Part shown: piece by piece, positions 462-40,064 of the stretch | Layout of the letters: each line of letters begins with the position of its first letter | Numbering within the stretch: the first letter of the stretch is position 1 | Assembly: GCA_965197465.1 (NCBI GenBank) | Contig: OZ240209.1 | Location: forward strand, 3,738,423-3,802,422 | DNA length: 64,000 nt | Direction of reading: 5' to 3' | From: Candidatus Poribacteria bacterium | GTDB lineage: Bacteria > Poribacteria > WGA-4E > JAJDTR01 | Translations under genes and position numbers: made by a program | Notes under the pieces: generated by a model | Databases searched by the model: none | Seen by the model: only the letters and a program-made list of their open reading frames with translations | Told to the model about the DNA's origin: nothing

Positions 462-3400
462 CTATTTGAGGATTACCATCCGTCTCACTTGAGCATAATC
501 CCCTGCGCGAATCTGATAGAAATACAAGCCGCTCGCCACTACCTCACCATACATATCTTCTCCATCCCAGTAGACCGCTTTACCGCGGGTGATGTATGTC
601 CCAACGTGCTGATAACCGAGATCGAACTGACGGACACGCTCACCGTTTGTATCGTAAATTGAGATAACCACCGCTGAATCGGTAGAGAGTTGATACGGAA
701 TCCACGTCTCAGGGTTAAACGGGTTGGGATAATTTTGCAGCAACATCGGTTTCTCGGGAAACAGCACTGCCATTGACACTTGCTCATTAACTACGTTCAC
801 CGGAATTGCCCTTGTCGCCGAATCCGCCAATTGTAGGTCTACAAGCCGAATGGGAAGTTGTGCCACGGGAGGACCCGTCTTTTTCACATGAAAAACAAGT
901 GTTGCCAGTGCCCCCTCTGCCGTCACACCTTCCAGCGTTCCTTGACGCGTCTGTGTCAGTTCCAGTTGTGTCCCTTGCTGGGAGACATGCCAGTAACTTT
1001 GGTGTAGTGTAGCAGCTAAAACCGGGCTTGGTAAGGCAGTAAGGAGTTCTAATACCGCTGGATCGTACTGGATCGAGAAATGGTAGCCGTAAAGATCGGC
1101 AATCGCTGTAGTGTGGATGGAGACGGTCAACTGTCGCGTAGCCGTCGCGCTTGGGGTCATCAGGAGGCGCAATTCACCTTCGGGCGATGCCGAGCGGAGT
1201 TGTCCAAAATTGACAGATGGCGCGGCGTTAATGAGTTCTTCGCCGAAATGTTGTGCGACAAGCACAAGATCAAAAATATCCACCTTGCCGTCTTGGTTGA
1301 CATCATAAGGGGGAAATCTTCGCTCAACATCTCCCTCTTCGATTGTCAGGGTCAATGTGTAGGAAAAATTCGCTTCATTTCCTCCGAACATATCTCTAAT
1401 CTCGGCATAGTAAATTCCGTCCACAGGAATTTCAAATCCTTCTAGCAATGAATCAATACCCTCTACAAATAGCGGAGCCTCGGCTAAAAGCTGTAAGTCC
1501 TTATTATAGAGCGACAAAACAAATCTAGGGAACGGGGTGTCGGGCTGCCCATCCACCGCTAACGTAATGATTTGTCCTCTTGTGGCAATAAACTGAAACG
1601 CATCGGCATCCCCGACAAAACTGATCGCTCCCTCGACAGGTTCCCCCACTGTTAACGGAGTCGGATTCCCTCTTAAGCCCTCGTGGTCATCTTCGGGAAG
1701 TTCGCCCTCGGACAACGTCAGCGTGTAGGTATAGGTGGAACCAATCGCGCCTCCTATGAAACCGGCAACATCAACACAATACTCACCATCGGTGGGGATG
1801 AGAAATCCATCCATTCGTACCTCCAAACTATTGGGAGTGCCTCGCGTAGATACCAACGTTTCACCGGACGCATCCAAAAGACTGAGTTGGGTTACGAAAA
1901 ACATTATCGTGCGTTCAGGCGGTTCTATCTCAACGCGGAGGGCAATGACAGTGCCCGCTGACGCTTCAAAGCGGAAACCATCCGAGTCATGTGGATCACG
2001 AGACGCAAGATCACCGCTAAGGGTGGTGACGCCTGTTATAGGTTCATCGAATGTCAAAGGCGTTTCTTCGCCGCTACCGCACGCGGCATGGTCATCGGTC
2101 TTTCCACCGATCGTCAATGTATAAGAGTAGTTTAGACCCCCAAAAGGGACAGTCAGATTGGGAATCGCAATGTTCCTGACAGCGAGCACGTAGGTTCCAT
2201 CGGTTGGTAGTTTTTCGCTCACGCGGGAATCAACACCTCGTGGATTTAGTTCAGGACTTAGCTCCGGACCGATGGTCGGTAAGACATCATCACTTTTGGC
2301 AAAGAGTTCACCATCTGGCGCATAGACAACGAGCAGAGAGTCAAGGTTGGAGTCCTTCGTCGTAACCGTGATCTCAATGCGCTGGCCCTTCTCACCTACA
2401 AATACGAAGAAATCAGAGTCGCCGTTGAAGTCAATGAAACTCTCTATGGTGTCGCCGATCGACACAGGTGTGGCTGTGTCGGGCGTATCGCCGTGATTGT
2501 CGATGATGAGTGCTAGTTTATAATCGTTGGTCGCACCATTAATGCCAGAAACCGTAACGAGATAATCGCCCGGGCCTAATTCTAGCGATGTGACATCCTT
2601 CGTTTCAAAGGATACAAGCTTGATACCTTCGGGCCCCGTCAATGTTAACATCAACTCCCCGTAAATGGGTTGAAAATCAATTCCCAACCCAACCTGCATT
2701 GTCTCGTCCAAATGGAATTGATAGTAATCAACATTGTCGGCTTCATGGATTGATAGTTCTTCGTTGACATACGGGAGCTCGACCGTGGCTGCGGTCTCCG
2801 CTGTATCGTTCTCCTCAAAGGCATCAAGTGCCAGATTGGGGCGCGTAAAGAATCCCCGGTTCTCCATAATCCCCAAGATGAGGTCGAAATTTGCGCCGCC
2901 ATTCAGTTCTTGGTCCGCAATGAGAATTGCCGATGCCCCATCGACAAGTTCCGCGTCGGGCGAGAGGAAGAAATGGCTCTCCACAACCATGCGGATCGAC
3001 GCATTGCGTCCGATCGCCTCAAAAATTTTCCATAGTGCTGCCGACCAAATCTGTCCATCGGCGTGTGGGTTACCCTCAATGTCTTCCGGATAGCGTTTGT
3101 TACCATTTACGGGACGAGTGGCGACCTCAGGATCTTCTGAACCAGCCCATTCAAAAACGATAGCATCACTAAAACCGTCGCTAACGGCGCTGAAAAAGCT
3201 GGCGGCGAGAAAATCACTAAACCCTTCATGTATCGCACCACCTTCCCCTTTGTTAATGCCAGGAACTTGGCGATCAAGGATGGCGTGGCCATATTCGTGG
3301 ACGATCACTTCGGCATCTTCGGCGATATCGGCACCGGCATCTCCGAAACCAATCGAGCCGTCACTATCGTCATAGAAACCGGCCCTCGTCATACCGACAT

Positions 3401-4469
3401 GCACATTCGCAGGAAGCTGCCAATCGTCTACGAAATCGAAGCCGAGTCCTTTCAAATAACGCGCGACCGTATCCACGTGATAATAGACCATCACCTCCTC
3501 AAATCGGGGGTCGTCTCGCAGGTAGTTGAATACCAGTGTCGGCTCGTTAGCACGATTTTCGGTCAATCTTGTACTTACGTAAGGACCATCAAGAAAACCA
3601 CTCCCGTCCAGTTCACGCAGAATCACATCCGTGTACGCTTCTTCCGGTATTGCGTCGGCAGCATCGTCCTGATCCATGAGCGTGAAATCTTTGAGGGCGA
3701 CAACGGGATTCGGGTTAAAGACGCGCCCCCGTCCGTCGGCGTACCTGAGCAGGTTCTGTTGGTATAATGGCTCGCCCGTGTTGGCATCAATAATACACTC
3801 CCAACTTGCCAGAGGTTGACGGGAATGTAGATTTACGCGGTACGCGAGGCGATACGCATCAACATAATCACCAAACTGTCCCACATCGCGACTCGGAAAA
3901 ATTACCAAGTTGGCACGCGGCGGCTTGCGTACTTCAAATACTCTCGCATCGGCAATAGCGATGCTGATCGCTTGATCCGGGGAGAACGATGCCGCTGTGC
4001 TAATGTTAATCTGTGGGAAGTAGTTGCTGTGGATGACTCGTATTTGACCGGAATGGTTGGTATGGATGGAGATCGCCGCACCGTAAACTTCGATACCGTT
4101 GTGGTATTGATGGAATCGAACATGTCTGCCTGTTAGGCTGCTTTGAATATTCGTGAGACGCAACTCAATGTTCAGATCGGTCATCGCAAAGAGGTCACAA
4201 TAGTCGTTAAGGCATTGACGCGCTGATGTTTCTAGCGTTCCTTCTGAGGCGTGCAGCGTCAAATTGTAAAGGCTGCGGACTGTTCCCCGGTTCGGATGCC
4301 ATCGTGCGCGGACAGGGGTTTCCGAATCAGATTTGATCCGCTGCAATGCCGCGGCTGTATTCAGTTGAATCTGTTGTCTTTCCTTCCCTTTGGCATATAC
4401 CAAAGGGGCACATATTAGGATTGCCCAGAGTGCTAACGCAAAAGGAGTCGAAAAAATCTGCTTATTCAT
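462..4469 (-). CDS. secreted multidomain zinc metalloprotease (gluzincin: HEYGHAILD...GAIHEGFSDF, thermolysin/M4-M6-like) with dockerin-like Ca-binding repeat and T9SS C-terminal sorting domain
   Basis: 1335-aa ORF. N-terminal signal peptide. HExxH plus downstream HEGFSD glutamate motif. DVNQDGKVDIFDL dockerin-type repeat. C-terminal ~90 aa (NYPNPFNPETW...YFYQ...) typical of the T9SS type-A CTD. Stop is TAG. Confidence 0.8.
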   Translation of the reverse strand: MNKQIFSTPFALALWAILICAPLVYAKGKERQQIQLNTAAALQRIKSDSETPVRARWHPNRGTVRSLYNLTLHASEGTLETSARQCLNDYCDLFAMTDLNIELRLTNIQSSLTGRHVRFHQYHNGIEVYGAAISIHTNHSGQIRVIHSNYFPQINISTAASFSPDQAISIAIADARVFEVRKPPRANLVIFPSRDVGQFGDYVDAYRLAYRVNLHSRQPLASWECIIDANTGEPLYQQNLLRYADGRGRVFNPNPVVALKDFTLMDQDDAADAIPEEAYTDVILRELDGSGFLDGPYVSTRLTENRANEPTLVFNYLRDDPRFEEVMVYYHVDTVARYLKGLGFDFVDDWQLPANVHVGMTRAGFYDDSDGSIGFGDAGADIAEDAEVIVHEYGHAILDRQVPGINKGEGGAIHEGFSDFLAASFFSAVSDGFSDAIVFEWAGSEDPEVATRPVNGNKRYPEDIEGNPHADGQIWSAALWKIFEAIGRNASIRMVVESHFFLSPDAELVDGASAILIADQELNGGANFDLILGIMENRGFFTRPNLALDAFEENDTAETAATVELPYVNEELSIHEADNVDYYQFHLDETMQVGLGIDFQPIYGELMLTLTGPEGIKLVSFETKDVTSLELGPGDYLVTVSGINGATNDYKLALIIDNHGDTPDTATPVSIGDTIESFIDFNGDSDFFVFVGEKGQRIEITVTTKDSNLDSLLVVYAPDGELFAKSDDVLPTIGPELSPELNPRGVDSRVSEKLPTDGTYVLAVRNIAIPNLTVPFGGLNYSYTLTIGGKTDDHAACGSGEETPLTFDEPITGVTTLSGDLASRDPHDSDGFRFEASAGTVIALRVEIEPPERTIMFFVTQLSLLDASGETLVSTRGTPNSLEVRMDGFLIPTDGEYCVDVAGFIGGAIGSTYTYTLTLSEGELPEDDHEGLRGNPTPLTVGEPVEGAISFVGDADAFQFIATRGQIITLAVDGQPDTPFPRFVLSLYNKDLQLLAEAPLFVEGIDSLLEGFEIPVDGIYYAEIRDMFGGNEANFSYTLTLTIEEGDVERRFPPYDVNQDGKVDIFDLVLVAQHFGEELINAAPSVNFGQLRSASPEGELRLLMTPSATATRQLTVSIHTTAIADLYGYHFSIQYDPAVLELLTALPSPVLAATLHQSYWHVSQQGTQLELTQTRQGTLEGVTAEGALATLVFHVKKTGPPVAQLPIRLVDLQLADSATRAIPVNVVNEQVSMAVLFPEKPMLLQNYPNPFNPETWIPYQLSTDSAVVISIYDTNGERVRQFDLGYQHVGTYITRGKAVYWDGEDMYGEVVASGLYFYQIRAGDYAQVRRMVILK

Positions 4470-4599
4470 AAAAAATTGTCCATTCGATTTGAAAACTGCC
4501 TTTTACCGAAACACACTTTAGGGTTAAAGCACCGTCATATACCAACTGTGTTGTGCTACAGTGCCTGGTGAGATAAATCACCGAGCTGCGAGACTTTCA

Positions 4600-4625
4600 G
4601 CGTTCAATTGCGTAAGTCCTAATAG
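4600..4625 (+). repeat. IS-end-like motif CAATTGCGTAAGTCCTAATA (copy 2)
   Basis: Similar to IS right IR CAACTGCGTAACTCCTAAAA. Located upstream of the protease start. Confidence 0.4.
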
Positions 4626-4919
4626 ATTAAGATGAGCCATGTTGGCAAAGTTTTCATCGTAACTCCGTCGCTTCCTGAATTGAGGAAGCATCACGACAGG
4701 AGGATGATAAAGTCGAGGGGAAGCTTGACAGGAACTCAGCTTTGGTAGGCAAGAATTGCTGCCATATCCACTCTATACAAGGTCTACCGCGGTATCTTCT
4801 TAGCTCCATTATTTCTGAATCGGAGACATTCTAGCACTTTCTGGCGAAATGTCAATTAGAACGTACGATTCTGTTTGTCTCCGCGAGACAAAACGCATAG
4901 CGATAATCTGTAGGTTGGG

Positions 4920-5184
4920 TTGACCCATCAACCGAGCGAATAGTGAGTAGGATTCTCTATCGCCAAATCCCCAGATAAAGTACCGAAAAGTCCGTAACGA
5001 CTTATTACGGCGGTAGCTTGTACCACAATCTGTATGAAGATTAAGTATTTAAATCGGTAATCCCAGTTTTCCCTAAACTCGGTAGGTGCGATCAAGCGAA
5101 CGGATAGTGAGTGCGATAGAGATTCCTTTCCTAACCGCACCGAGCATCGTTAGGACATTACCGAATTATTTTTTTAAACTTCAT
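4920..5184. repeat. repeat-rich spacer: GATAG-type ~37-bp units plus a GTAG-type REP hairpin (5078-5140) split by a 37-bp unit
   Basis: CGGTAGGTGC[gatcaagcgaacggatagtgagtgcgatagagattcc]TTTCCTAACCGCACCGAG. The uninterrupted hairpin CGGTAGGTGCGGTTTCTAACCGCACCGA occurs at 15541. The 3' tail ATTACCGAATTATTTTTTTAAACTTCAT recurs at 7488-7515. Confidence 0.6.
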
Positions 5185-6256
5185 AGGAGTTACGCAGTTG
5201 GCTGAAGCGTATAAAGAGGTTGTGCCAAATAAGCACGTATCGCATCTCTGACAATAGAGAGTTTTGCTTCAAACCAACTGATTCCGGTATGATAACAGTA
5301 ATGTTCTATTCTCAGAAAGGCTCTCAGCGCTAAACCGATATGATTTCTTTGAGTGCGAGCAGAGCGCACTTGTCCCCGCTCAATGCCAACAAATTGCTTA
5401 ATCCCGCGATGATATTCTTCTATTGTCCAAGACCATTCGGCATAGTTGAGACGCCTCAATTCGTCCATCTGTAAATCATTCGTTGCCCAATATTCAATGT
5501 CACCTTCTGGAGTGTCAACCTTGAATACTCGAATCAATCCATAGCCTTTAAGATGAACAATTGTACCCATGGATTCAATCGGAAGCGTACTCACCGGACG
5601 GTTACCGGAATAATCTTTACTGACAAGTCGGTTGGCAGCTAGACGAGTAAGCCACTTCCAACCATGACCTCGCACCGCTTTTAGATTCTTTAGACTGGCA
5701 TACCAACTATCAAAACACACACATTCAGGAGCAAAACCGCGTGTTTTCGCTTCTTCAAGCATCGCTCGGAAATGGTCATTTTTCGTCAAGCCGTCTGTGG
5801 CTTTGTCATAGATTCGATAATCACACGGAATATGTCTATCGCCATCCGTCCAGAGTAAAGTGACCAAGTTAATCCCATTCACCACTCGGTGGTGTTTCCC
5901 TGACCAGTGTTTTGTCACTAATTCAATCTTTTGTGATCAACCGACTGAATAGGGAGGGCGATAGAGATCCTCAAGGTTTATCCAGAGTCGAATCATCTAT
6001 AACTAAGATTCCAGATTCATTACCTGATTTTTCGATTCGTGCCACAGGTTGCCAGTGTCGGGTTCATCTCGATGCAAAAGCCTTGTTATCGAATCATGAG
6101 CGGGTGAGTCCTCCGCTTGAGGTTGAACTTTTTCTGCCTCAAGACAACTGTAACTTTTCTGGGCGCCAACTAAGAAATTGATATAGTCAATGTCAGCATA
6201 TTTGGGGGGATTCATGCTCAAATTATAACCTATTTTTACTCAACTGCGTAACTCCT
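5185..6256 (-). mobile_element. insertion sequence, 1072 bp, IS4/IS5-superfamily DDE transposase, 16-bp perfect terminal inverted repeats AGGAGTTACGCAGTTG
   Basis: Left end 5185-5200 is the exact reverse complement of right end 6241-6256. The transposase spans almost the entire element on the minus strand. Confidence 0.75.
5190..6221 (-). pseudogene. IS transposase (DDE; ...LVIDDSTLDKP / KIELVTKHWSGKHH...) disrupted by a 37-bp insertion at ~5937-5973
   Basis: Two ORFs (6003..6221 N-terminal part, 5190..5918 C-terminal part). Deleting the 37-bp GATAG unit restores one continuous frame (DKPSQKIELVTKHW). Confidence 0.7.
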
Positions 6257-6699
6257 AAAAATATCGCCGCAACCCACGCTATTCTTGGGTTTCCCTTCCC
6301 AATGGATTCTCAATTCCTCAGATTTCTCGCGTAACAGTTTCGATGCTCACAGACGAACTGCGAGAGACAACTTTCCGAAAAGACGAGAGCAGTCGATTTC
6401 TGATTATCTCCCTGAGTCGAATAATTCGCTCAGGTTCGACGAGTCTCGTAAGTCTCATGATGGGTGAGTCGCGATTGTATGTATCATACCATAGCCGCGA
6501 ACAACCTTCCAAGTCGCATATATCAACTTGAGGTCGGCTCCCTATTTTGCCCGAAATTCGTCGTGGCGTCAAGCGGAAGATGTGGTTTTGTAGGACTCCT
6601 GCAAATTCGTGTTTTGCTGTCAGCTACTCGATTGTCATATTCCCGTCGGATACGCTAAGAACTTGTTTGAAAAGTCATCTTTCCCCATGACAAGAGATA

Positions 6700-7140
6700 A
6701 AAAACGAATAGATCAAGCACGATCAAGCGAGTGGATAGCGAGTGCGATAGAGATCCCTCAAGCGAGTGGATAGCGAGTGATCAACTGACTGAATAAGGAA
6801 GGCGATAGTAAATCCCGATAGAATTCCCTTATAGCACGCGCGATAGAGATCCCAGTGCGGTAGGAAATCCCCTGCGATAGAGTTTTCATAGGAAATCCTG
6901 ATAGTCGATCCTGATAGAAAACCCATAGAGATTCCAGGCTCACAACTCTCTGCGCGGCTCCGATAACTAGCAATTATTGGATTGACAACTTTACGCATGT
7001 ATAGTATAATTTGGGGGTGAAACCGATCAAACGAGTGAATATCGAGTGATCAACTGACTGAATAAGATCAAGCGAATGGATAATGAGCGCGATAGAGCTC
7101 CTAAGGCGATAGAGCTCCCATAGAGATCCCTATTACTTGA
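6700..7140. repeat. degenerate direct-repeat array of (C/T)GATAGAGATCC-ending ~37-bp units (GATCAAGCGAGTGGATAGCGAGTG-CGATAGAGATCC and GATCAACTGACTGAATAAGGAAGG-CGATAGAGATCC types); strongly GATC-enriched
   Basis: Over 12 unit copies at irregular spacing, with about 10 GATC sites in ~450 bp. DnaA-box-like GTGGATAG/TGGATAA submotifs. Not coding. Confidence 0.65.
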
Positions 7141-7318
7141 AAACTCGGTTTCTCAAAGTCACTTTGCACCTCCTTTCGACATGAGCCGATGCATTGATGC
7201 AGAAAAAAAACGCGTACTACTACCGACGCAACCCCGTGCTCGCAACATGATGAATTGGCGCCATCGTCAAAAAACACGCGCCAAAGTGTCAAGTTTCGTC
7301 AAGTAAGGGAGGCGCGAC

Positions 7319-7426
7319 GTGCCAAGAACGAAAAAACAAAAGTTCAAATCCTCGGGCACTCAAAAAACTCGAAGAAGTTTCGATTGCTTGAGTTTTTCGA
7401 TGAAATTTAATTTTTTAAATCGCTAA
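7319..7426 (+). CDS. hypothetical small basic protein (35 aa, VPRTKKQKFKSSGTQKTRRSFDCLSFSMKFNFLNR) with GTG start
   Basis: Strong Shine-Dalgarno (SD) motif AAGGGAGG 6 nt upstream of GTG. Below the ORF-track size cutoff. Lies in an A-rich noncoding region. Confidence 0.2.
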   Translation: MPRTKKQKFKSSGTQKTRRSFDCLSFSMKFNFLNR

Positions 7427-7440
7427 TTCTAATTTTCACC

Positions 7441-7515
7441 GGGCACGGTAGGCGCGGTTTCCAACCGCGCCGAGTTTCGCCGAGCAATTACCGAATTTAT
7501 TTTTTAAACTTCATG
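7441..7515 (+). repeat. REP-like hairpin (CGGTAGGCGCGGTTTCCAACCGCGCCGAG) plus conserved tail shared with 5078-5184
   Basis: GTAG tetranucleotide plus 9-bp stem palindrome, followed by GCAATTACCGAATTTATTTTTTAAACTTCAT as at 5150-5184. Confidence 0.55.
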
Positions 7516-7555
7516 TAAAAACTCCCATAGAGTTCTTCTCCCGGTCGCGCCCCTC

Positions 7556-7580
7556 TTGCGGCTGCGTAAGTCCTACTTCG
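7556..7580 (+). repeat. IS-end-like motif GGCTGCGTAAGTCCTACTT (copy 4)
   Basis: Matches the TGCGTAA(G/C)TCCTA core of the IS terminal IR. Confidence 0.35.
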
Positions 7581-8602
7581 GTGATGAATGCCACTTCGCC
7601 AACCGCGTGACCGGAATACAAAGTGCCCGACAAGCACCACTAATAACACTTTCTCTGTTTATGCGTATGTTATGTCTACACGGCGCAAACTCGCTCCCTG
7701 AGCGACTCCATACAATCTCGAGCATAGCAGTCCGCTGTACCGGAGTATTCCCGAAAAAACTCGAAAAGGCACTCTGAAAAAACTGAAATAACCGAAATAA
7801 CTGAAAAAAACAGCCCCATGTGTTCCCGAACATTTGCAAGTTGCCGCACAATCGAAGCCGATGTCCGAGCCAGAACCGGCAGACTTACATCGACTGAAAC
7901 CGCTAAGCTAATCCGCTTCGCGGAACGCACCCCAATTATACGCGCGCACAATAGCGCACATTAACGCACGGCAACACGAAGCGCCAAACACCCCCGCAAC
8001 CCGCGCCCTGTCCCGCTTCTCTGCCTATTGGCGATGTCGGAACCGAAAGTGCGCTATAATCTCAAGAAGTCGGCATAAGAACCTGTGTGAACATACGATG
8101 AAGCCAGGCACGTGTAACCATTCACAGCTATCGCACCTTTTTCAAACAGGCTCTAAAGGCAGGATTTTTCAGTGATAGAATTGGGATGGTGTACTATATA
8201 AATGCGTGATAAAATCCAGCCGCTTGGGGTATTAGCTTCAGATGGTTGTGTGTGAAGCCCCGATAGATCCGGACAGGCTGTGAAACGTGATGCGTAATCT
8301 TCTTCACGTTTCACTTGAGGATGCAGCTATGATGGGAATTGTCACGAATATAGTGATAGTGCAGGAAAACGAACCATGTCGATTTCTGTTGTCCTAAAGC
8401 GAAAAACGGGTAAAATAACTCACGAATATTGGGAATGGTTCATATTTCGCCTGAATTTAGTACAATTTTCAAAACCGCTGAAAATCAGGCGGTTGTCTCA
8501 AATGGGACGGGTGAGTGGTAGAGTGGTGAGTGGTTGTGCCACGTCCCACCACTCACTATTCACCCGAAGAAATCAACTTCTTTAAACGCGAGGTTTTCTA
8601 TC

Positions 8603-9451
8603 ATGAACCGATTATCAACCGAAGAAATCAGCATTTTTAAACGCGAGGGATACCTCATCAAAAAAGGCGTGCTCGATCCCGACCTGATGGCGCGCGCCCG
8701 CTAGTGCAAATGGGCTGGAGCGCCGGATCGGATGAAGCCTGACGACCCGACTACCTGGATCGGCCCCTGGCGCCCAGATGAGGAAACACCCGAAGCGGAG
8801 GACAACTGCAGGGTCGGGCACTACTGGCAATACCGCGAACCGGCGCACGAGGAGTGGCTAGTACGGATGACGATGGCGAACCCCATAATCGTTGGTTGGG
8901 CTGAACAGCTTCTCGGGGAAGGCACGTTCGACGTGCGGGACTACGTTCGCGGCATCTACTGCCTGTTGCCGAATGGTGGCACTCCGGACACGCCTGGTGT
9001 GAGCCAGAAGCTAGTTTGCCACTGCGACGTCAATCCCGAAAAGTTACACTCGACGCCCTTCCAAAGGCTTCTGAAGGCCGGTGTCGGCGCCGTCGGACTG
9101 ATTGCGCCCATTCCGCCCAATGGGGGAGCATTTACGGTGTGGCCGGGAACGCATAAGATTATTTACGACCTGATGATCAGTACCGAAGGCCTCGCCCGCA
9201 ACGAGACCTACAAGCAGCGGATCATCGACTTCAACAGCGACCGCCATGTCGATGGTTGGGGTGACGCGGGCGACGTTCTCCTGTGGCACCGTCTTCTGGC
9301 TCACACCGCCGGTTCGAACCGCTCCGAAAAATTGCAATTGAGAGAAGCGGTGCTCTTCGATTACCCGCAGCCGGAGGCCGAGAAGCCGAAGGCATCCTAC
9401 GAAGACATGTGGGAGGACTGGTCGGATGAGGTGCGCGCGACAGCCGGGTGA
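8603..9451 (+). pseudogene. phytanoyl-CoA dioxygenase (PhyH) family protein interrupted by in-frame TAG (8702-8704) after codon 33
   Basis: MNRLSTEEISIFKREGYLIKKGVLDPDLMARAR-TAG. The 239-aa PhyH body (HCDVNPE, WHRLLAHTAGSNRS) continues in the same frame. The ~40-bp N-terminal coding segment is tandemly duplicated at 8565-8640. Confidence 0.6.
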
Positions 9452-11405
9452 CCGGAGAAAAGAGGAGCGAGTCTTTCGGTTAACTTTGCCAATTTTCGGG
9501 GCGGTGGACTGGCGATTGGCGTCAGAGGGCCGTGCAACTCTGAAGATAAGACATATAAAACAACCATCAGCAGTTTCATTGGGTAGTATCCTTGTTATAC
9601 TGCTCCTGTACTTGCCGTGTTGTGTTCAGGCGCGGGATTTCTATGTCAGCAATGACGGGCTTGACAAGAACGCCGGTACTCGGGAGGAACCTTTTCGCAC
9701 GCTGGCTCGTGCAGCCTTGCACGCGGAGGGTGGTGACACAGTAATCCTTCGAGGGGGCATCTACCGCGAAACTCTCACCGTTCGCCATTCTGGAACGGAC
9801 ACCAAGCCCCTGACATTCATGGCAGCGAAGGGGGAGAAGGTGGTCATCAGCGGCGCTGATCTTGTGGGAAGCTGGAAGCTCTACAAGGGCTCCATTCTGC
9901 AGACGAAGATTCCGAAAGTACTGGATGTCGGATTCAACCAGTTATTCTTGGACGGACGAATGATGAACCAGGCTCGTTTCCCCAACGAAACGAGCACCGA
10001 TCTGCACAAACCCACGTTCATCAGAATGAGTGCCGGCGACAGCCGCATCACATCGCCGCTCCTTACCCAGGACGATGGGTTCTGGAATGGAGGCTTCGTT
10101 GTCGGTCTATTTGACCATCGCTGGACCATCCAATGTGCAAAAATCAAGGATTACAGGGCTGGTACACTTAGTCTGGTCGGAAAGTCTCGACCGTGGTACA
10201 AGGGGGCCGGCCACGGCTATGTGAGCGGTGTCCTCGGCGCGCTGGATGCACCGGGGGAATGGCATATCGAAGACGGACGTCTTTATTTCTGGCCGCCCGA
10301 AGGAACAGACATGACCTCCGCCCGTGTCGAGGTCAAGCGCCGCACGCTATGCATTGATTACAACGGACAATCTCACGTGGCGGTCAAGGGAATCAATGTT
10401 ACCGCAGGAAGTGTTCGCTTGGTCGGCAACTCATGCACGCTTGAGAGCAGCCGTTTGATCTATCCGAGCCACTTTACTTACTTTACATGGGGAGGGATGG
10501 CGTCCGATGGTGGTGTCGACAACGGGCACAACGGCATCCTGGTTCAAGGAACCAACAACACGATACGCGCGTGTACGATCAAGTACTCGGCGGGCTCGGG
10601 CATCGTGATCAAGGGCGCACAGAATCTGATTACGCGTTGCCAGATCAGCGATATCGACTACTCCGGGACGTATTCCTGCCCGATCTCTGTGGCGACGGCG
10701 CCGGGGATGGTCACCGGCAAGAACCGCATCTGGTTCAACACCATACGCCGCACCGGGCGCGACTGTATTCAATTGTACGGGGCTTCGGCTGACGACATTC
10801 GGTACAACGACATCTCTGATGCCGGACTGATGTGTAAGGATCTCGGGTTGGTTTATGTGTGGGGGCGTGACGGGAAAGGCACGCGCATTGCCTACAATTG
10901 GGTTCACGACAACAAAAGCCATGGCCCAGGCATCTACCTCGACAACTACTGCCAGAACTTTGTCGTGGATCACAACGTGATATGGAATTGTGGAGCCGGG
11001 ATACGCGTGAATGGCCCCGCCAAGGGCCACAGACTGTACAACAATACGCCGTTCAACTGCCGTGATGTCGGAACCCGCCCCTACAACCAGTGGCCCAACC
11101 ATACGCCTGGTTACTGGACCGGCGGCGGTTATGGGAATATCTACCGATATACCAAAATCAACAATCTATTTCTAAGTAGGAGACCGGCTGCACAACTTGA
11201 GGATTTTGCGAACAAGAATTCCAGCCTCAAGACCGGTGCCCCAGCCATTGATTCCGGAAAGCCGGTCACCGGGATTACGGAAGGCTTCCTCGGGGAGGCA
11301 CCTGACCAGGGAGCATATGAATCTGGTGGAGCGAGGTGGCTCCCGGGCGTGCGTGGACGAGCCGAACACGGCGCTGCAGCGGACGCGGACGAACCGCCCC
11401 GCTAA
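9426..11405 (+). CDS. secreted right-handed parallel beta-helix repeat protein (pectate-lyase-fold; putative polysaccharide lyase/hydrolase)
   Basis: 659-aa ORF. Signal-peptide-like SAVSLGSILVILLLYLPCCVQA suggests the true start is near TTG 9579. Many NxIxxN/beta-helix repeats. Stop TAA. 32 bp upstream of the sulfatase gene. Confidence 0.7.
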   Translation: MRCARQPGDRRKEERVFRLTLPIFGAVDWRLASEGRATLKIRHIKQPSAVSLGSILVILLLYLPCCVQARDFYVSNDGLDKNAGTREEPFRTLARAALHAEGGDTVILRGGIYRETLTVRHSGTDTKPLTFMAAKGEKVVISGADLVGSWKLYKGSILQTKIPKVLDVGFNQLFLDGRMMNQARFPNETSTDLHKPTFIRMSAGDSRITSPLLTQDDGFWNGGFVVGLFDHRWTIQCAKIKDYRAGTLSLVGKSRPWYKGAGHGYVSGVLGALDAPGEWHIEDGRLYFWPPEGTDMTSARVEVKRRTLCIDYNGQSHVAVKGINVTAGSVRLVGNSCTLESSRLIYPSHFTYFTWGGMASDGGVDNGHNGILVQGTNNTIRACTIKYSAGSGIVIKGAQNLITRCQISDIDYSGTYSCPISVATAPGMVTGKNRIWFNTIRRTGRDCIQLYGASADDIRYNDISDAGLMCKDLGLVYVWGRDGKGTRIAYNWVHDNKSHGPGIYLDNYCQNFVVDHNVIWNCGAGIRVNGPAKGHRLYNNTPFNCRDVGTRPYNQWPNHTPGYWTGGGYGNIYRYTKINNLFLSRRPAAQLEDFANKNSSLKTGAPAIDSGKPVTGITEGFLGEAPDQGAYESGGARWLPGVRGRAEHGAAADADEPPR

Positions 11406-14258: not shown

Positions 14259-15475
14259 GTGGTCTATTCGCTAAGTAGTTATGGTATATTTATCCATGAC
14301 AGAACCATAGGCACCTAACCTGTAGCTCGGCTGCTGTTGAGGCATTTTCTTCCATCGGTAAGGGTGCTTATGGGCATTCCACCAACAAACTGCATCGTTG
14401 AGCGCATCAGTCAGTTCATCAAGCGTTTCAAACCTTCTCCCTTTCAAAGCGAGAGACTTTAACTGTTTCCACCACGGCTCTATCAAATTTAGCCAACACG
14501 CATATTTCGGAATAAACTGTACTCCAATCTCAGGCCACGCTAAAAGCGCCACCTTTACATCACGACTGTGATGAATCGAAAGATTGTCTTCGATGAGTAA
14601 CCATCTCTCAGAAGGAAACTTATCTATCACTTTCTCAATCAGCTGGATATGAGTTGCACTATCTCTACTCGGAGAAAGTACAATTTCCGCTTGACCTGTT
14701 GACGGTTCAAAGGCACCATGAACCCATAGTTTACCTCGACGACCATAATCCGGCTCAAAAGTGGCTCGATTGGCACCGGGTTGCCAAGTTTCACCTGGAT
14801 AGGTTTTAACCGCAATGGGTCCCATTTCATCAATGCAGATTATTCGTGTGTCCGCTGCAGGCGCAATGTACGCCGAAATTACAGCCCCCTTTTTTCCACA
14901 AATTGGTCGTCCTGTTTTTCTGCCTCATCAAACCAACTCTGTTGACGTTTCCAACTCAGTCCTTCGTCTGTTAACCAGTTCATATGGTCGACAGAGAGAG
15001 ATAAACCCCCTCTCTCTGTTTGAAGACGGTATGCAGGCGCTCTAGAGTCCATAACTCAAATGGATAACCCAGGCTCTTGGGTTTGTGCAGTGCTAAATCA
15101 ATCAGTTTACTGCGAACCTCTACCGAATGCGTTTTCGGTGCGCCACTTCGGGGTTTATCGGTGAGTCCTTCAATGCCTTCACCGTTGAATCGCTGAACCC
15201 ATTGCGCTCCGGAAACCCCTGTTTTGAATCCAGCCTGTATGGCGGCTTTGGAGGCTGTCAGTTGGCTGTCGTCCAACATGTCGACGATTAACTGGGCTCT
15301 CTGCACAAACCGATGAGGTTGGGTACGTGAGTTGGCTAAAGTCCTAAGTTGATGTTCTTCTGTTTCACTGACCGCACGAACGTAATGAACTCGTTTTCCC
15401 ATTATAAATTCTCCTTTCCATTTCGGTTGAATGGGCAGGAGAATTATATCATATACTCTTAGCGAGTCAACCATT
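14259..15475 (-). mobile_element. IS630-family insertion sequence inserted at TA; transposase in two ORFs (14980..15474 HTH part, 14271..14825 DDE part)
   Basis: Flanked by TA (14257-14258 and 15476-15477). Termini GTGGTCTATTCGCTAAG / CTTAGCGAGTCAACCATT. The empty site GCCGTTTTAGTCTGTGTGATAGG is present in repeat copy 1 (13517-13540). Confidence 0.8.
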
Positions 15476-15477
15476 TA

Positions 15478-15609
15478 GTGGTCTTTTCGCTAAGTATTTA
15501 ATACTTACGAGACTGGCACAAGAAACCCGTTCTGCCACGCCGGTAGGTGCGGTTTCTAACCGCACCGACACCCAACACTTAATCATATTTACTTAGCGAG
15601 AAAACCATT
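15478..15609. mobile_element. 132-bp MITE derived from the adjacent IS630 element (same termini), second tandem TA insertion; carries a GTAG-type REP hairpin
   Basis: GTGGTCTTTTCGCTAAGTA...CGGTAGGTGCGGTTTCTAACCGCACCGA...TACTTAGCGAGAAAACCATT, followed by TA. Confidence 0.6.
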
Positions 15610-15618
15610 TAGTGTGTG

Positions 15619-17404: not shown

Positions 17405-18181
17405 CTATACATGTAATGCTCTGTCGAGATTATAGTGACAAATGAAGTATTTGATGGCGCTGATGTGATTGGTTTTACGGCTCTGCTTTTTGACCACCCG
17501 ATGCTGCTGTTCCGGAATGACCTCCTCATAGGCACCCCAACTATCTGTATAGAAGGTCGTACCTCCCCTGTAGATCGTTGGCACCGGCTCGCTCTCATTC
17601 TCTGTCTTCAACTGAGATAGCAAGACCTGTCCCAGCGGGGATTTGGCCAACCCCTGTTGAAGTTCCTCCTTCGATAATCCCCTCAACTTGAAAATGAGGA
17701 ACGGATCCCTATCAAATTCCAGCGCCGCCAAATAATAAACGCCCGCAATGTGTTTGCACGGGTTGTCCCAATCAGGACAAGAGCAGTCCGTCTGAAAGTC
17801 CTTTCGGCTGCGGGGGAGTAGGCTCAGAGCCAAGTCAGAGAAAGCATCTTCGATATTGTCAGGCATTTCGTTCATCAGGAGTTTGGAGACGTAGGCGGCT
17901 TTCGATGAAATGGCGGTTATCACTTTGGACCAATCGGTTTTGGGAATGGGTGTAATGCCAACCGTAGTTTGATAAAGGGGTTCTTCATACACATCAAAGT
18001 ATGGATTGATCGACCCTCTGACCAGCGCGTCTATCTTTCCTCTGGTCAGGTGAAATTCGACAATCTTTCCGTTCCGGGCGTAGGCGCGTCCACGAGCAAG
18101 CCGACCAGAGTCGGTAATCTGTTCGAGAGCGTCGATGAATCGCCTTCCCCACCAGGTTCGACTGAATTGAGCCATCATTCA
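17405..18181 (-). CDS. SWIM zinc-finger domain protein (COG4279-like), apparently truncated; C-terminal ~50 aa resemble an IS1-type transposase tail
   Basis: WWGRRFIDALE...CSCPDWDNPCKH (SWIM CxC..CxH). C-terminal FYTDSWGAYEEVIP...H..KYFICHYNL resembles the IS1 InsB C-terminus. Confidence 0.5.
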
Positions 18182-28008: not shown

Positions 28009-28830
28009 GATGTGAAGCAGAAATCGAGAAAAAGAGAAGCAAAACGCCGGGCGGAGTGTGCCCAAAGAACAAAAAACCAAGAGATTTTTGTTGATAGCAC
28101 ACCATTATCCCTGTCGGAATAATTCTTTCAGCAAGTAACACCTATTACTACATAGAATCCAAGTTTTCGATCCAGAGGATCGGTATGTTGATAGAATGCG
28201 ATAGGTCCAAATTCCGCGCTCCAGCGGAGCGCAATGTGTATAGCGCATCATCAAATAACACTCATTTTTCGCTCTATGGCTAGCTTTGGAGAAAGTGTTA
28301 CTTGAGAGAAAAGCGAAAACTGAGTAAAATGGCCGTCGTATATTTCCCAAGCGACGCGCCGTTTTAGTTTCAACAGATCGAGTTGCGCCATTTCTGCGGT
28401 TGTTTTCATTGATTAGAAAGTCGGTCGGGCTTCCAAACCCGACGATCTCCGCAAAAAGCCAAATGTCGTGTAGCAGCGCGGACCCGACCCACTGCCGTTG
28501 GCGAAAGATGATATAAGCCTACGAAATCACAACTTGTGGGGGTTGATGTCATTGTGAGCCGAAGCCGCAGAATCGCGATCTTTCACAAAGCCTCAAGATG
28601 ACATTTCAAACGAAATCCTTGGCTAAGTGTACCCTTGAACGTAGCAAAGAATCTCAGAAATGGGAAAAAGCAAACCCAATTCCGTATAAGAACTGATTTA
28701 TGACTCGCGAGACGGATGATATCATGATTGTTTTGAGGTGAAATATGCGGTTCATCGACCTAACCATCTAACAAAATGCATCACGACCAATACGGTCTTT
28801 GTAACTCATAATTTGTACAGGAGCTTCCAC

Positions 28831-34814: not shown

Positions 34815-36191
34815 CTAAGGCAGCAACGGTTCCGGGGCTTCAATGAGCGCGCGTAAATCTCCGAGGAGGCGGGCACACGGGGCACCGTCAACCACTCGGT
34901 GATCGAAGGTGAGGACGAGCGTCGCCATGTCACGGGCCACGATCGAGTCACCGTCCACGACCGCAGCGCTACGCACTCGCCCGACGCCCAGGATGGCGCA
35001 CTGCGGTGGGTTAAGCACTGGCGTGAACCAGTCCACGCCAAGACCGCCGAGATTGGTCACCGTGAACGTGCCATGTGCAAAGTCGTCGGGTGCCAGTGTT
35101 CCCGCCTGGGCGCTGTCTGCGAGTTCTCTGACCACCTTCGCGAGCTCTACCACGCCGAGGGTGTCTGCGCCTCGAATGACCGGTACGACCAAGCCCGCCG
35201 CAATGTCAATGGCGACTCCCAAATTGATGTCACGATACTGGTGTATCGCACCGTCAATCAGCGCTGCATTGAGTTGGGGATGGGATTTTAATGCCTGGGC
35301 CGTAGCTTTCAGCACAAAATCGTTGATCGTCGGTGCGACGCCGTGGGTGTCTCGCCACGCGTCTGCATTTGACCTCCGCGCGGCCTGGAGCGTGCTGAAA
35401 TCAACCTCGATACCCTCGGTGACGTGCGGTGCCTCGGACCAGATCGCACCCAGGCGCTCGGCGGTAATCCGGCGAATACCGGCAAGCGGAGTAACCTCTA
35501 CACCAGGATCCGGAGTTTCATCGGCTGCTTCTTTCTGACTGGCTGTGCCGGCGTCCACAGCGCGCTGCACATCTTCTTTGGTCACCCGGCCACCCGGACC
35601 CGTGCCTTGCAACGTCTCGGCGTTTATGCCGTGCCGTTCTGCCAGCCGCTGCGCCACCGGTGTAACCCGTGAGCCCGCAGGACGATCGGCTGATGGCGCC
35701 CCGGGCTGTTCCACGTCACCAGGATCCGGAGTTTCATCAGCGGCTTTTTCCTGACTCACTGCACCGGCGTCAATCGCGCGCTGCACATCTTCCTTGGTGA
35801 TTCGTCCGCCCGGACCAGTACCTGGCAATGCCTCGGCGTCTATGCCGTGCCGTTGAGCCAGCCGCTGTGCCACCGGCGTAGCCCGTGACCCCGCAGGGTG
35901 TTCGACAGCCGAGGTCTTAGGTTGTTCTGCGGGGACCTCCGGTACTTCCTCCCCCTCCTCTCCGATCCAAGCCAAGGTTTCGCCAACCTCGTACTCACCA
36001 TCAACCTGACCGACGATGCGCAACAGCACGCCACTGACCGGAGACTCGACCTCGGCGACAGTCTTATCTGTCTCGATCGACACCAATAGCTGGCCTTCCT
36101 CAACTCTACTGCCTTCGGCTATGTGCCATTCGACGACACGTCCCTTTTCCATGGTGTGGCCGAAAGCTGCTAAACGGAACTGTATTGCCAT
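34815..36191 (-). CDS. dihydrolipoamide acyltransferase E2 of a 2-oxoacid (pyruvate/acetoin) dehydrogenase complex
   Basis: Lipoyl domain (ETDKTVAEVESP), two E3-binding domains (TPVAQRLAxRHGIDAE...GTGPGGR), catalytic DHRVVDGA. Confidence 0.9.
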   Translation of the reverse strand: MAIQFRLAAFGHTMEKGRVVEWHIAEGSRVEEGQLLVSIETDKTVAEVESPVSGVLLRIVGQVDGEYEVGETLAWIGEEGEEVPEVPAEQPKTSAVEHPAGSRATPVAQRLAQRHGIDAEALPGTGPGGRITKEDVQRAIDAGAVSQEKAADETPDPGDVEQPGAPSADRPAGSRVTPVAQRLAERHGINAETLQGTGPGGRVTKEDVQRAVDAGTASQKEAADETPDPGVEVTPLAGIRRITAERLGAIWSEAPHVTEGIEVDFSTLQAARRSNADAWRDTHGVAPTINDFVLKATAQALKSHPQLNAALIDGAIHQYRDINLGVAIDIAAGLVVPVIRGADTLGVVELAKVVRELADSAQAGTLAPDDFAHGTFTVTNLGGLGVDWFTPVLNPPQCAILGVGRVRSAAVVDGDSIVARDMATLVLTFDHRVVDGAPCARLLGDLRALIEAPEPLLP

Positions 36192-39229: not shown

Positions 39230-40064
39230 AACAAACAAACCTTCTTATAAAGTCGATATCCATAATTCAACCTTGATGTGCGGATCTGATCTCCGGAGAT
39301 TATTTCTAGACTATAATATACCGGACATAGGCCACATGTGAAAAGAATAATACATTTCAAAATGACCTCTTTCCAAAATGCTGCTCGTGCGGGATATACG
39401 GGCCCCTCTCCGCATTTAGTTTATCTGAAAAGTGTCACTATAAACTGTAAGCGATATTACTCCAAAATATGACTCACTTTGGCCGATAATTAGATGGGAT
39501 ACCGTTGCATCCACGATCCAGTATTCACGCGGATTTGAGGGATTTTGTTGACATAAATTCTGCCACCCTCAAACCGCATCAATCCACACCCGGGGCGGAT
39601 CTTACCTCAAAAGGCACTTGTTTCGCGCCTCCAAAACAGTGGTTTTGGCAAATTCCCAAAAATCGGTGTTTGGAGGTGTCAACCCGGCTGCGGGTTTGAG
39701 GGGGATGTCAAGTTGGAAATCAGCCCCTGATTTTACTCAATTGTTGCCCCGCAACCCCGTGAGACTAGGAGCTGGTCTATGCAACGGTCACAAAAAACTG
39801 ATATGGGAGAGGAGAACGGTAAAGCCCGTTTAGCTTCTTGACTCTGGAGTTTTTTTTAATGTATCGTAATTGTTTAGTCTACTGATTTCTAGGGTCGAGT
39901 ACTACGAACCTGCACGGTTTTTTGCCATTTTTTAGGCGTACCCAGTGGTGAATGCCCATTTCCTTGATTTGTAGTGGGCAATTTTTTGCCCGTCTTACGG
40001 TTTTCAGGGTTTTCACTGACCACTAGCCACTAAACACTTACAATGTATCTAATCATTTCAGGGA

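Follow-up and report, generated by a model that had tools for sequence, protein, structure and literature searches.

The stretch of DNA analysed here (the window) comprises 64 kb of a Candidatus Poribacteria contig (OZ240209.1), and the subject of this report is a family of mini-units of about 37 nt that lie together in a gene-free gap of 4.2 kb (4470-8730). The gap is bordered by a gene for a secreted M36-type peptidase (462-4469, minus strand) and by a PhyH-family gene (8732-9451), and besides the units it holds an insertion sequence (IS) and copies of an element that resembles a miniature inverted-repeat transposable element (MITE). The unit has the form GATCAA-N17-GCGATAGAGATCC; the initial annotation of this DNA had rightly recognized such units both in an array and as isolated copies. 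With at most two mismatches the motif GCGATAGAGATCC occurs eight times in the window, always between 4951 and 7129, against 1.3 occurrences expected. A covariance model made from the unit family (R1), run on the whole window with filters off, found five full units, all on the plus strand, together with fragments, everything lying within 4926-7130, and no unit above noise in the remaining 60 kb. An Rfam scan of 4400-8800 gave no family at threshold and one sub-threshold chance match. The features that the argument draws on are given below; loci with an L number are the stretches of DNA used for comparison, mainly 8-kb, unit-centred stretches of Poribacteria DNA, and REP stands for repetitive extragenic palindrome.

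4926-4964, plus strand: fragmentary copy, consisting of a head piece (4926-4948) and an inverted tail piece (4949-4964), adjoining a GTAGGTTGGGT-type repeat
4926, 6762, 6833 and 7025: fragments detected by R1
5033-5185, no strand assigned: MITE-like copy 1, occupied by a unit, with terminal inverted repeats of ~28 nt and a central REP hairpin, and with inverted and direct repeats relative to copy 2
5090-5126, plus strand: full unit (R1 59.7 bits) in the 5' arm of a GTAG-headed REP hairpin, at the centre of MITE-like copy 1
5184-6257, minus strand: host IS with perfect 17-bp terminal inverted repeats (5184-5200 and 6241-6257), TAGGAGTTACGCAGTTG
5935-5971, plus strand: full unit (R1 59.3 bits) inside the IS transposase pseudogene
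6711-6720, plus strand: head fragment GATCAAGCAC of a degenerate outer unit (tentative parse)
6721-6757, plus strand: full unit (R1 61.7 bits), abutted head-to-tail by the next unit
6758-6778 and 6816-6828, plus strand: head and tail of a split outer unit
6779-6815, plus strand: full unit (R1), nested at the G24|C25 step of the preceding outer unit
6829-6935, plus strand: run of about nine tail remnants, of the YGATAGARATCC and CAGTGCGGTAG types, to the right of nested insertions
7025-7130, plus strand: triple nest (outer unit 7025-7047 and 7119-7130; middle unit 7048-7065 and 7102-7118; inner unit 7066-7101)
7066-7102, plus strand: full unit (R1), innermost of the triple nest
7390-7524, no strand assigned: MITE-like copy 2, an empty site, with the REP hairpin intact at 7447-7471
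15542-15566, plus strand: empty REP hairpin of the kind occupied at 5090
28217-28245, plus strand: empty hairpin CGCTCCAGCGGAG|CGC, the matching site of which in L064 holds a clean 34-nt unit

The IS adjoins the right end of MITE-like copy 1 and carries its transposase on the minus strand. Homologues of the transposase, as rebuilt from the window, number in the thousands; they typically have 331 amino acids and DDE_Tnp_1 and DDE_5 domains, and they read through the unit site. Two related IS copies from other samples, in L110 (88%) and L111 (86%), are both without the unit, and the DNA alignment with them gives the window IS a net gain of 34 nt exactly at the unit, where 37 nt stand in place of 3 nt, i.e., TTGTGA-(TCAACC..GATCCTCA)-AGG in the window as against TTGTGA-ATA-AGG in L110 and L111. 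A copy of 37 bp had initially been placed at 5937-5973, with the claim that its removal restores a continuous transposase frame; the insertion and the restored frame were borne out, with the unit at 5935-5971, and the deletion of the 37 nt costs one codon, the tyrosine of LDKPYSQKIELV as the homologues read it. Relative to both L110 and L111 the window IS has, in addition, a separate 4-nt deletion near 6020, which means that it was, or became, a pseudogene independently of the unit. The unit portion is the only piece of the IS that matches other Poribacteria loci. The L111 transposase has a 1-nt frameshift of its own, which leads to the same truncated open reading frame (ORF) of 242 amino acids.

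The unit at 5090-5126 interrupts a repeat rather than a gene. Its host, the MITE-like element, is ~115-150 nt long and is bounded by terminal inverted repeats of ~28 nt (ATGAAG..TAAATCGGTAAT), with a GTAG-headed hairpin, GGTAGGCGCGGTTTCCAACCGCGCC, at its centre; a related copy stands at L003 150-263, and no parent transposon was identified for it. Compared with the intact hairpins at 7447-7471 and 15542-15566, the occupied one has 36 nt (ATCAAG..GATTCC) in place of a single G, a net gain of 35 nt. The earlier statement that a copy at 5088-5124 separates the arms of a hairpin that is uninterrupted at 15541 thus holds in substance, with the positions corrected and a second intact copy added at 7447-7471. 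What does not hold for either host is an insertion of precisely 37 bp, since the net gain is 34 nt in the IS and 35 nt in the REP, with replacement of a few bases of the host. The GTAG-headed REP kind found at 5090 is also occupied in L090, L014, L105 and L030.

The stretch at 6700-7140, which had been called a degenerate array, is not a plain tandem array but is made up of units inserted into other units, nested or head-to-tail. Repeat searches, both plain and with Tandem Repeats Finder, report only a weak 11-nt periodicity there, and the nested reading comes from empty-site comparisons; for example, the middle unit of the triple nest has an uninterrupted equivalent in L029 and L075. With the unit numbered from the G of GATCAA, the steps at which units enter other units are G24|C25 (in both orientations, and the commonest), G18|C19 and G1|A2, the last of which gives head-to-tail runs with a period of 34, e.g., in L070. 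Since units use their own G|C steps, copies accumulate as nests and head-to-tail runs, and this is what the 'array' consists of. In the pile at 6700-6935 tail remnants outnumber head pieces, and the signatures CCATAG, CTGATAG and CAGYGCGATAG also trail nested units in other loci. A lone head piece (within 4926-4964) lies 1.8 kb upstream of the pile, from which it is separated by the MITE, the IS and 440 nt of unassigned DNA (6258-6693), and it may be that 4926-4964 and 6816-6935 belong to one pile that was split by later insertions. Near-identical units with a 34-nt period stand head-to-tail in L070 (5796-5968) and L106 (about 1712-1834), and these arrays came about by either tandem amplification or repeated insertion at the G1 step. 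Single host sites hold units of differing stem subtypes, even within one genome, which points to repeated targeting of such a site; co-divergence with compensatory change is a possible alternative.

Copies of the unit were then sought beyond the window by scanning the pattern GATCAANNGANNGNATANNGANNGCGATAG, in which the four stem pairs are left as wildcards, against one genome per prokaryotic species. The scan gave at least 108 further stretches, and among the matches listed all lie in 13 Candidatus Poribacteria metagenome-assembled genomes (MAGs), produced with various assemblers and read types, so that within these matches the family appears to be restricted to Candidatus Poribacteria. The same pattern had no match in viral contigs, and among 241 million records of JGI metagenomes it found one AT-rich locus, seen four times, in which the pairs are not kept and which is a chance match. 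R1 found 234 copies in 100 of the 8-kb loci, a relaxed rule found 310 in all loci and the window, and the units are dispersed over whole chromosomes, with hundreds per chromosome. They stand between divergent gene pairs (58) more often than between convergent ones (17). The notion that the copies represent the decay of one ancestral tandem array, which the initial annotation had named as the finding that would overturn it, is excluded by these dispersed copies and by the empty sites. A sister subfamily with the ends CAGCAA..GCGGTAG (instead of GATCAA..GCGATAG) was seen at L083 1799-1835, L085, L108 1423-1459 and L041 3420-3456, inserted in heptamer-like repeats of the CCACTAG/CCACTGA type.

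The proposal that related mini-units behave as insertions into unrelated mobile DNA rested on the two copies above; it is right, and is now supported by the empty sites of the IS and the REP and by some 60 further pairs, the hosts being REP hairpins, other units and the IS gene. For this comparison the flanks of each unit were joined and uninterrupted versions were searched across all loci, which gave 61 filled/empty pairs with a single gap, with net gains of chiefly 34 nt (18 pairs), 35 nt (14) and 36 nt (18). With 70-nt flanks, 51 further comparisons showed the 37-nt stretch to correspond to 1, 2, 3 or 5 nt at the empty site, 3 being the commonest. Some of the pairs are paralogous repeats in one genome (OZ244829.1), with flanks 94-99% identical. 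Others are orthologous: L046 and L038 come from two species and correspond to one locus, with an identity of ~95% across more than 300 nt of unique flanking sequence; the outer units are common to both, and L046 alone has an extra nested unit, seen as a 34-nt gap plus CG>CC. The orthologous pairs L052/L105 and L018/L104 hold their units in common, and taken together these three comparisons show that the unit has moved since the species split, though not frequently.

The two junctions differ in character. The left one is exact, the host base before ATCAA being G in 46 of 49 normalised events; the host base after the junction is C in 31 of the 49, and the commonest dinucleotides there are CG (21), AG (9) and CA (7). 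At the right junction GATCC and a further C or T close the unit, at the cost of 1-3 host bases, with recurring signatures such as CGATAG>CCATAG or CTGATAG, CGC>CTC, CGA>CCA and CAC>CCC. The initial annotation had suggested looking for target-site duplications by comparing occupied and empty sites; there is neither duplication nor microhomology in any of the 61 events, as follows from the fact that the gap cannot slide. Two events appear to be clean 34-nt insertions between G and C, in L064 (compared with window 28217-28245) and in L054, and the replacement rule fits these as well. Solitary tail pieces are rare, which indicates that units arrive whole and that there is no truncation series. An origin of the units as transposon-excision footprints was ruled out, the two halves of the unit not being inverted copies of one another. 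On this evidence the mobility of the unit is well supported.

The family has a structure that is conserved in a strand-specific manner. A 17-nt hairpin is made of the pairs 7-8/22-23 and 11-12/18-19, i.e., two 2-bp stems, with a tandem G.A/A.G between them (G9 A10 facing G20 A21) and the loop G-R-A-T-A. Both G.A steps stand in a pyrimidine-GA-purine context (Y-GA-R), which favours sheared tandem G.A pairs. The constant parts are ATCAA, the loop GRATA, GCGATAG and the GATCC end, and the four variable pairs stay paired: 96.1% of their cells are paired, as against 65.5% in shuffles and 23-59% with the partners slid by 1-3 columns, and cells with a double change number 250, as against 41 in shuffles. 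As the four pairs were wildcards in the search pattern, their pairing behaviour is unbiased. Each pair occurs in three or four different Watson-Crick types. Wobbles of the G.T type are common (G.T 39 times at 7-23, T.G 50 times at 12-18) and A.C or C.A rare (2-3 times), from which it follows that it is the GATCAA strand that folds, either as RNA or as single-stranded DNA; a single-strand intermediate is supported by this strand-specific pairing. Unpaired positions are 90-99% conserved, including in copies found without the exact pattern, and the unit ends, GGATC/GATCC, correspond over 5 bp only.

The sites that receive the units are structured too. Empty targets other than units fold at -10.7 kcal/mol, compared with -7.6 kcal/mol for control intergenic G|C sites (p = 3e-5), the junction falls mostly within a stem of the target hairpin, and of 305 units, 78 have GTAG in the 14 nt upstream and 2 have CTAC. 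A tblastn search with Y1 transposase sequences, which served as a lead only, was followed by Pfam, and three Y1_Tnp genes (PF01797) were thus confirmed in the unit-centred loci:

L041 5565-6137: Y1_Tnp gene flanked by GTAGGGTG(C/G)GCAC(C/T)GC(G/C)CACC hairpins
L090 3848-4354, minus strand: Y1_Tnp gene flanked by GTAGGAGCGATCTCC(G/A)AATCGCGAC doublet arrays, one doublet being occupied by a unit
L011 1519-1980: Y1_Tnp gene flanked by inverted CGCTCCAGNGGAGCG hairpins

Each of the three genes has a hairpin repeat family of its own, in layouts that resemble REPtrons, and in L041 a partial duplicate of the 3' end of the Y1 gene stands at 6286-6555. The hairpins that flank the three genes are the three largest target families of the unit, which implies that its usual targets are REPs that are handled by Y1 enzymes as single-stranded hairpins. 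For Y1 REP transposases it is known that the cut in single-stranded DNA falls at a dinucleotide next to a REP and that the enzyme stays on the 5' phosphate, and in vitro any 3'-OH can resolve the Y1 5' link, which results in one exact junction (PMC8266576).

The best explanation of these observations, to which we assign a probability of about 0.55, is that the unit is a non-autonomous, non-coding mini-insertion element of Poribacteria, 34-37 nt long, that moves as a single strand and is mobilised in trans, likeliest by a Y1/HUH protein. The enzyme, and the chemistry at the right junction, are what we infer; the combination of an exact left and a loose right junction matches the Y1 chemistry just described and is the basis of the proposed mechanism. 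The element would move as a folded single strand, the one written GATCAA.., and a resident Y1/HUH protein, as the likeliest enzyme, would cut before ATCAA and transfer the 5' end to a 3'-OH of the host, made accessible where a REP hairpin is single-stranded, while the other end of the unit would be resolved less precisely by replication or repair. What the data show directly is that the element enters whole and exactly after a host G, its 3' end (..GATCC C/T) replacing the next 1-3 host bases. They also show its preference for G|C(R) steps inside hairpin-forming repeats, above all GTAG-headed REPs and similar hairpins beside the Y1 (HUH) genes of these genomes; the hit in the IS gene is occasional collateral.

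Several observations weigh against this explanation. The hairpin is weak in nearest-neighbour folding, with z-scores that are not significant (-0.7 to -1.3 for RNA, about 0 for DNA), and the case for the structure comes from covariation and not from energy. The orientation of the units is without a replichore pattern, both orientations being interspersed on the complete chromosomes OZ244829.1 and OZ246960.1 (in an incomplete sample with the origin not mapped). None of 27 inverted unit pairs in the 870 kb examined encloses a transposase-like gene, only ordinary genes; none of the Y1_Tnp genes found is flanked by units themselves; no protein family is enriched near units beyond those common in Poribacteria (LRR, PhyH and similar); and no Y1 gene was found in the window. 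An imprecise right junction is not expected from two-ended HUH chemistry, and the conservation of units at orthologous sites between species is a sign that activity is not high. The lineage restriction, for its part, is limited to the matches listed of the genome scan. Finally, the known REP-associated tyrosine transposases (RAYTs) have their cleavage site, C|T or C|A, outside the hairpin (PMC8266576), and the unit uses G|C within it.

A more specific form of the proposal would make the unit a hyperparasite of REPtrons, i.e., a geneless single-strand element of ~36 nt that is moved by the REP-processing Y1/HUH enzyme through a one-ended strand transfer, in which the enzyme-bound 5' end ATCAA.. 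would be joined to a host 3'-OH within a REP hairpin and the other end resolved imprecisely. We regard this as a tentative idea that is rather unlikely. If it were true, no mobile DNA of which the structure, the ends and the target rule are defined would be smaller, and the unit would be a natural counterpart of the cleavage-strand-transfer reaction carried out in vitro.

Among the alternatives, spread through RNA survives best, although it seems unlikely. A structured RNA would be transcribed from a master copy, reverse-transcribed and integrated at nicks in hairpins, a route that has reportedly been proposed for the small dispersed repeats (SDRs) of cyanobacteria. It would account for wobbles of the G.U type being tolerated on one strand only, for stems that covary like those of functional RNAs, for a fold that is somewhat better than shuffles as RNA and not as DNA, and for the lack of target duplications together with one imprecise junction. 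Against it, there is no series of 5'-truncated copies, and the precision is on the wrong side, since target-primed reverse transcription of such an RNA should leave a precise 3' junction and it is the 5' end of the folding strand that joins precisely; nor was a reverse transcriptase seen near units or a match found in Rfam.

The units might also not be transposable at all, having been copied by template switching or gene conversion from nearby copies at stalled or broken hairpins, which we consider improbable. The local clustering would fit, as the copies in the window all lie within 2.2 kb and on one strand and the other REPs of the window are empty, and so would the capacity of the target hairpins to stall forks and the loss of a few host bases at one junction. 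It is difficult to reconcile with ends that are constant in ~60 events with essentially no microhomology (only the left G is shared, and the gaps do not slide), with units that are always whole, with differing stem subtypes at one host site and with dispersal over whole chromosomes.

A slightly smaller chance still is given to a cis element selected by the host (a protein-binding or regulatory hairpin, or a REP-like mRNA or DNA signal) for which spread would be secondary. The conserved unpaired positions and covarying stems are what such an element would show, as is the retention of units at orthologous loci between species, and the units are almost entirely intergenic (287 of 310, or 93%, although ~74% of the sampled DNA is in ORFs of at least 150 amino acids). 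Relative to co-directional flanking genes, however, 66 units have the same orientation and 67 the opposite one, an evenness that argues against a cis function at the transcript level, and the nests, the breaking of the IS gene and other repeats, and the lack of a match to a known family in Rfam also speak against it.

The initial annotation had pointed to a roughly 10-fold enrichment of GATC and to DnaA-box-like TGGATAG/TGGATAA, and a replication origin or a Dam/SeqA-type cluster, in which TGGATAA would act with GATC pairs, could be imagined because some units hold GTGGATAAC, a DnaA box at 8/9, and each unit has two GATC sites (31 nt apart). Neither hint stood up. At 6700-7140 there are 10 GATC sites where 1.7 are expected, an excess of about 6-fold; over 4920-7140 there are 13 against 8.7, and the window as a whole is at expectation (260 against 250). 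Every one of the local sites is the end of a unit, which makes the excess a consequence of the units and no separate signal. A match to the DnaA 9-mer of at least 8/9 occurs in only 8 of 305 units, the box positions vary and are among the covarying ones, no turn of the GC skew is seen, and hundreds of copies are scattered over each chromosome, all of which refutes an origin as the main explanation and leaves it very improbable. An assembly artefact, for which it can be said that the window is a single assembly and nothing further, is the least probable of all, the unit being present in 13 MAGs from various assemblers and read types and at orthologous sites in two species.

Among known systems, the closest analogue of the unit appears to be the SDR family, i.e., the small dispersed repeats SDR1-8 of Nostocaceae cyanobacteria, reportedly described by Elhai et al. 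in 2008 (Genome Res 18:1484; see also PMC5861425 and PMC3116915). By description, rather than by sequence or fold, both are very short, non-coding and dispersed and are seen as insertions in otherwise conserved sequence; both nest in their own copies and sit in minitransposons or other short repeats; and both have a hairpin backed by compensatory changes and neither a known enzyme. For the unit these traits are seen in its insertion and self-nesting, in its MITE host at 5033-5185 and in the CAGCAA subfamily that is found in heptamer-like repeats. The SDRs reportedly measure 21-27 nt and belong to Nostocaceae, as against 34-37 nt and Poribacteria. The unit differs, furthermore, in having defined junctions (G|ATCAA on one side, GATCCY replacing 1-3 nt on the other) and targets that are REPs linked to Y1 genes, and we know of no earlier description of such a junction rule and target class. 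Full-text literature searches gave no description of such repeats in Poribacteria, and SDR-like repeats have not been found outside Nostocaceae (PMC5861425).

REPs and REPINs with their RAYTs are likewise short, intergenic, hairpin-forming, high-copy, strand-specific and geneless (PMC3116915, PMC6006769, PMC8266576). A REP is defined by GTAG or GTGG 0-2 nt 5' of the hairpin foot, by a fully paired basal stem of 7-20 nt and by a loop of 2-5 nt (PMC6006769). The unit has no such head, the four bases 5' of its hairpin being TCAA in at least 300 of 310 copies, and GTAG near units, where present, belongs to the upstream host repeat; its stem is 2 bp, a tandem G.A/A.G and 2 bp, with a 5-nt loop, as compared with 7-20 paired positions; and it does not flank any Y1 gene (three genes, 870 kb), inserting into REPs instead. 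Some insertion sequences, such as IS1397, also insert into REPs (Tobes & Pareja 2006, cited in PMC3116915), and in that listing REP hairpins are the preferred sites, as they are for the unit, with the difference that these are full insertion sequences with a transposase and target duplications and the unit has neither.

The elements of the IS200/IS605 group and their miniature derivatives (PATEs) share with the unit the lack of target duplication, a hairpin-dependent single-strand logic and an exact join 3' of a fixed base. The unit was rejected as one of these miniatures on account of its single hairpin instead of two subterminal ones, its one conserved target base (G in 46/49) as against 4-5, its imprecise right junction and a size that is many times smaller; IS200/IS605 elements also show a replichore orientation pattern, and the unit has no such bias. 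Nor is it a MITE, as its ends match over just the 5 bp GGATC/GATCC and the 61 events have no duplication and lose host bases, or a CRISPR repeat, as the copies are solitary, nested or abutting and irregularly spaced. Domain V of group II introns (34 nt) and other ribozyme fragments were considered as well, and presumably their fold is unlike that of the unit.

The size of the unit puts it among the smallest mobile DNAs known. To our knowledge, the cyanobacterial SDRs of 2008, which have no known mechanism of movement, are essentially the only precedent for elements of this size, and a second, unrelated lineage means that the phenomenon is not confined to cyanobacteria. The system is also tractable: its ends are sharp, its hairpin covaries, its target rule is simple, empty sites are numerous and it is associated with REPs that flank Y1 genes. 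Because candidate enzymes and substrates can be synthesised, the defined ends, hairpin and targets together with the Y1 link make the question directly testable. In practical terms, the units disrupt both genes and repeats and give rise to local pile-ups, and in this uncultivated phylum of sponge symbionts they cause short-read assemblies to fall into fragments; annotating them would improve the interpretation of MAGs.

Other repeats of the window are shared with related genomes. The dispersed repeats at 15469-15613, 17781-17974, 28084-28309 and 39862-39978 are 76-94% identical to loci of Candidatus Poribacteria MAGs, which places the window in a Poribacteria genome other than those of the loci compared. 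The last three are multi-hairpin modules (GCRCTCC-AGN-GGAGYGC, spacer AATGTCAATAGAAT..) that are common to many Poribacteria loci, and no units were found in any of the three. The REP hairpin at 15542 lies, within 15460-15614, between the direct repeat TTAGCGAG..AACCATTTAGTG and beside an IS630-like transposase (14271-15474, minus strand) that is split into HTH_32 and DDE_3 ORFs; the block 15469-15613 also occurs in L107, L085, L015 and L025.

The gene-free gap that contains the units also has a 9-nt tandem repeat (CTGAAAAAA, four copies) at 7774-7809. At its right border, L001 (ENA contig ctg167625) can be compared with window 8732-11405: the PhyH protein is identical and synteny breaks directly after its gene, L001 continuing with tRNA_anti-like, HATPase_c_3 and two DNA methyltransferase genes, and the window with a beta-helix protein. 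A 216-nt tandem repeat (1.8 copies, 83% matches) stands at 35501-35897, within the ORF at 34815-36191.

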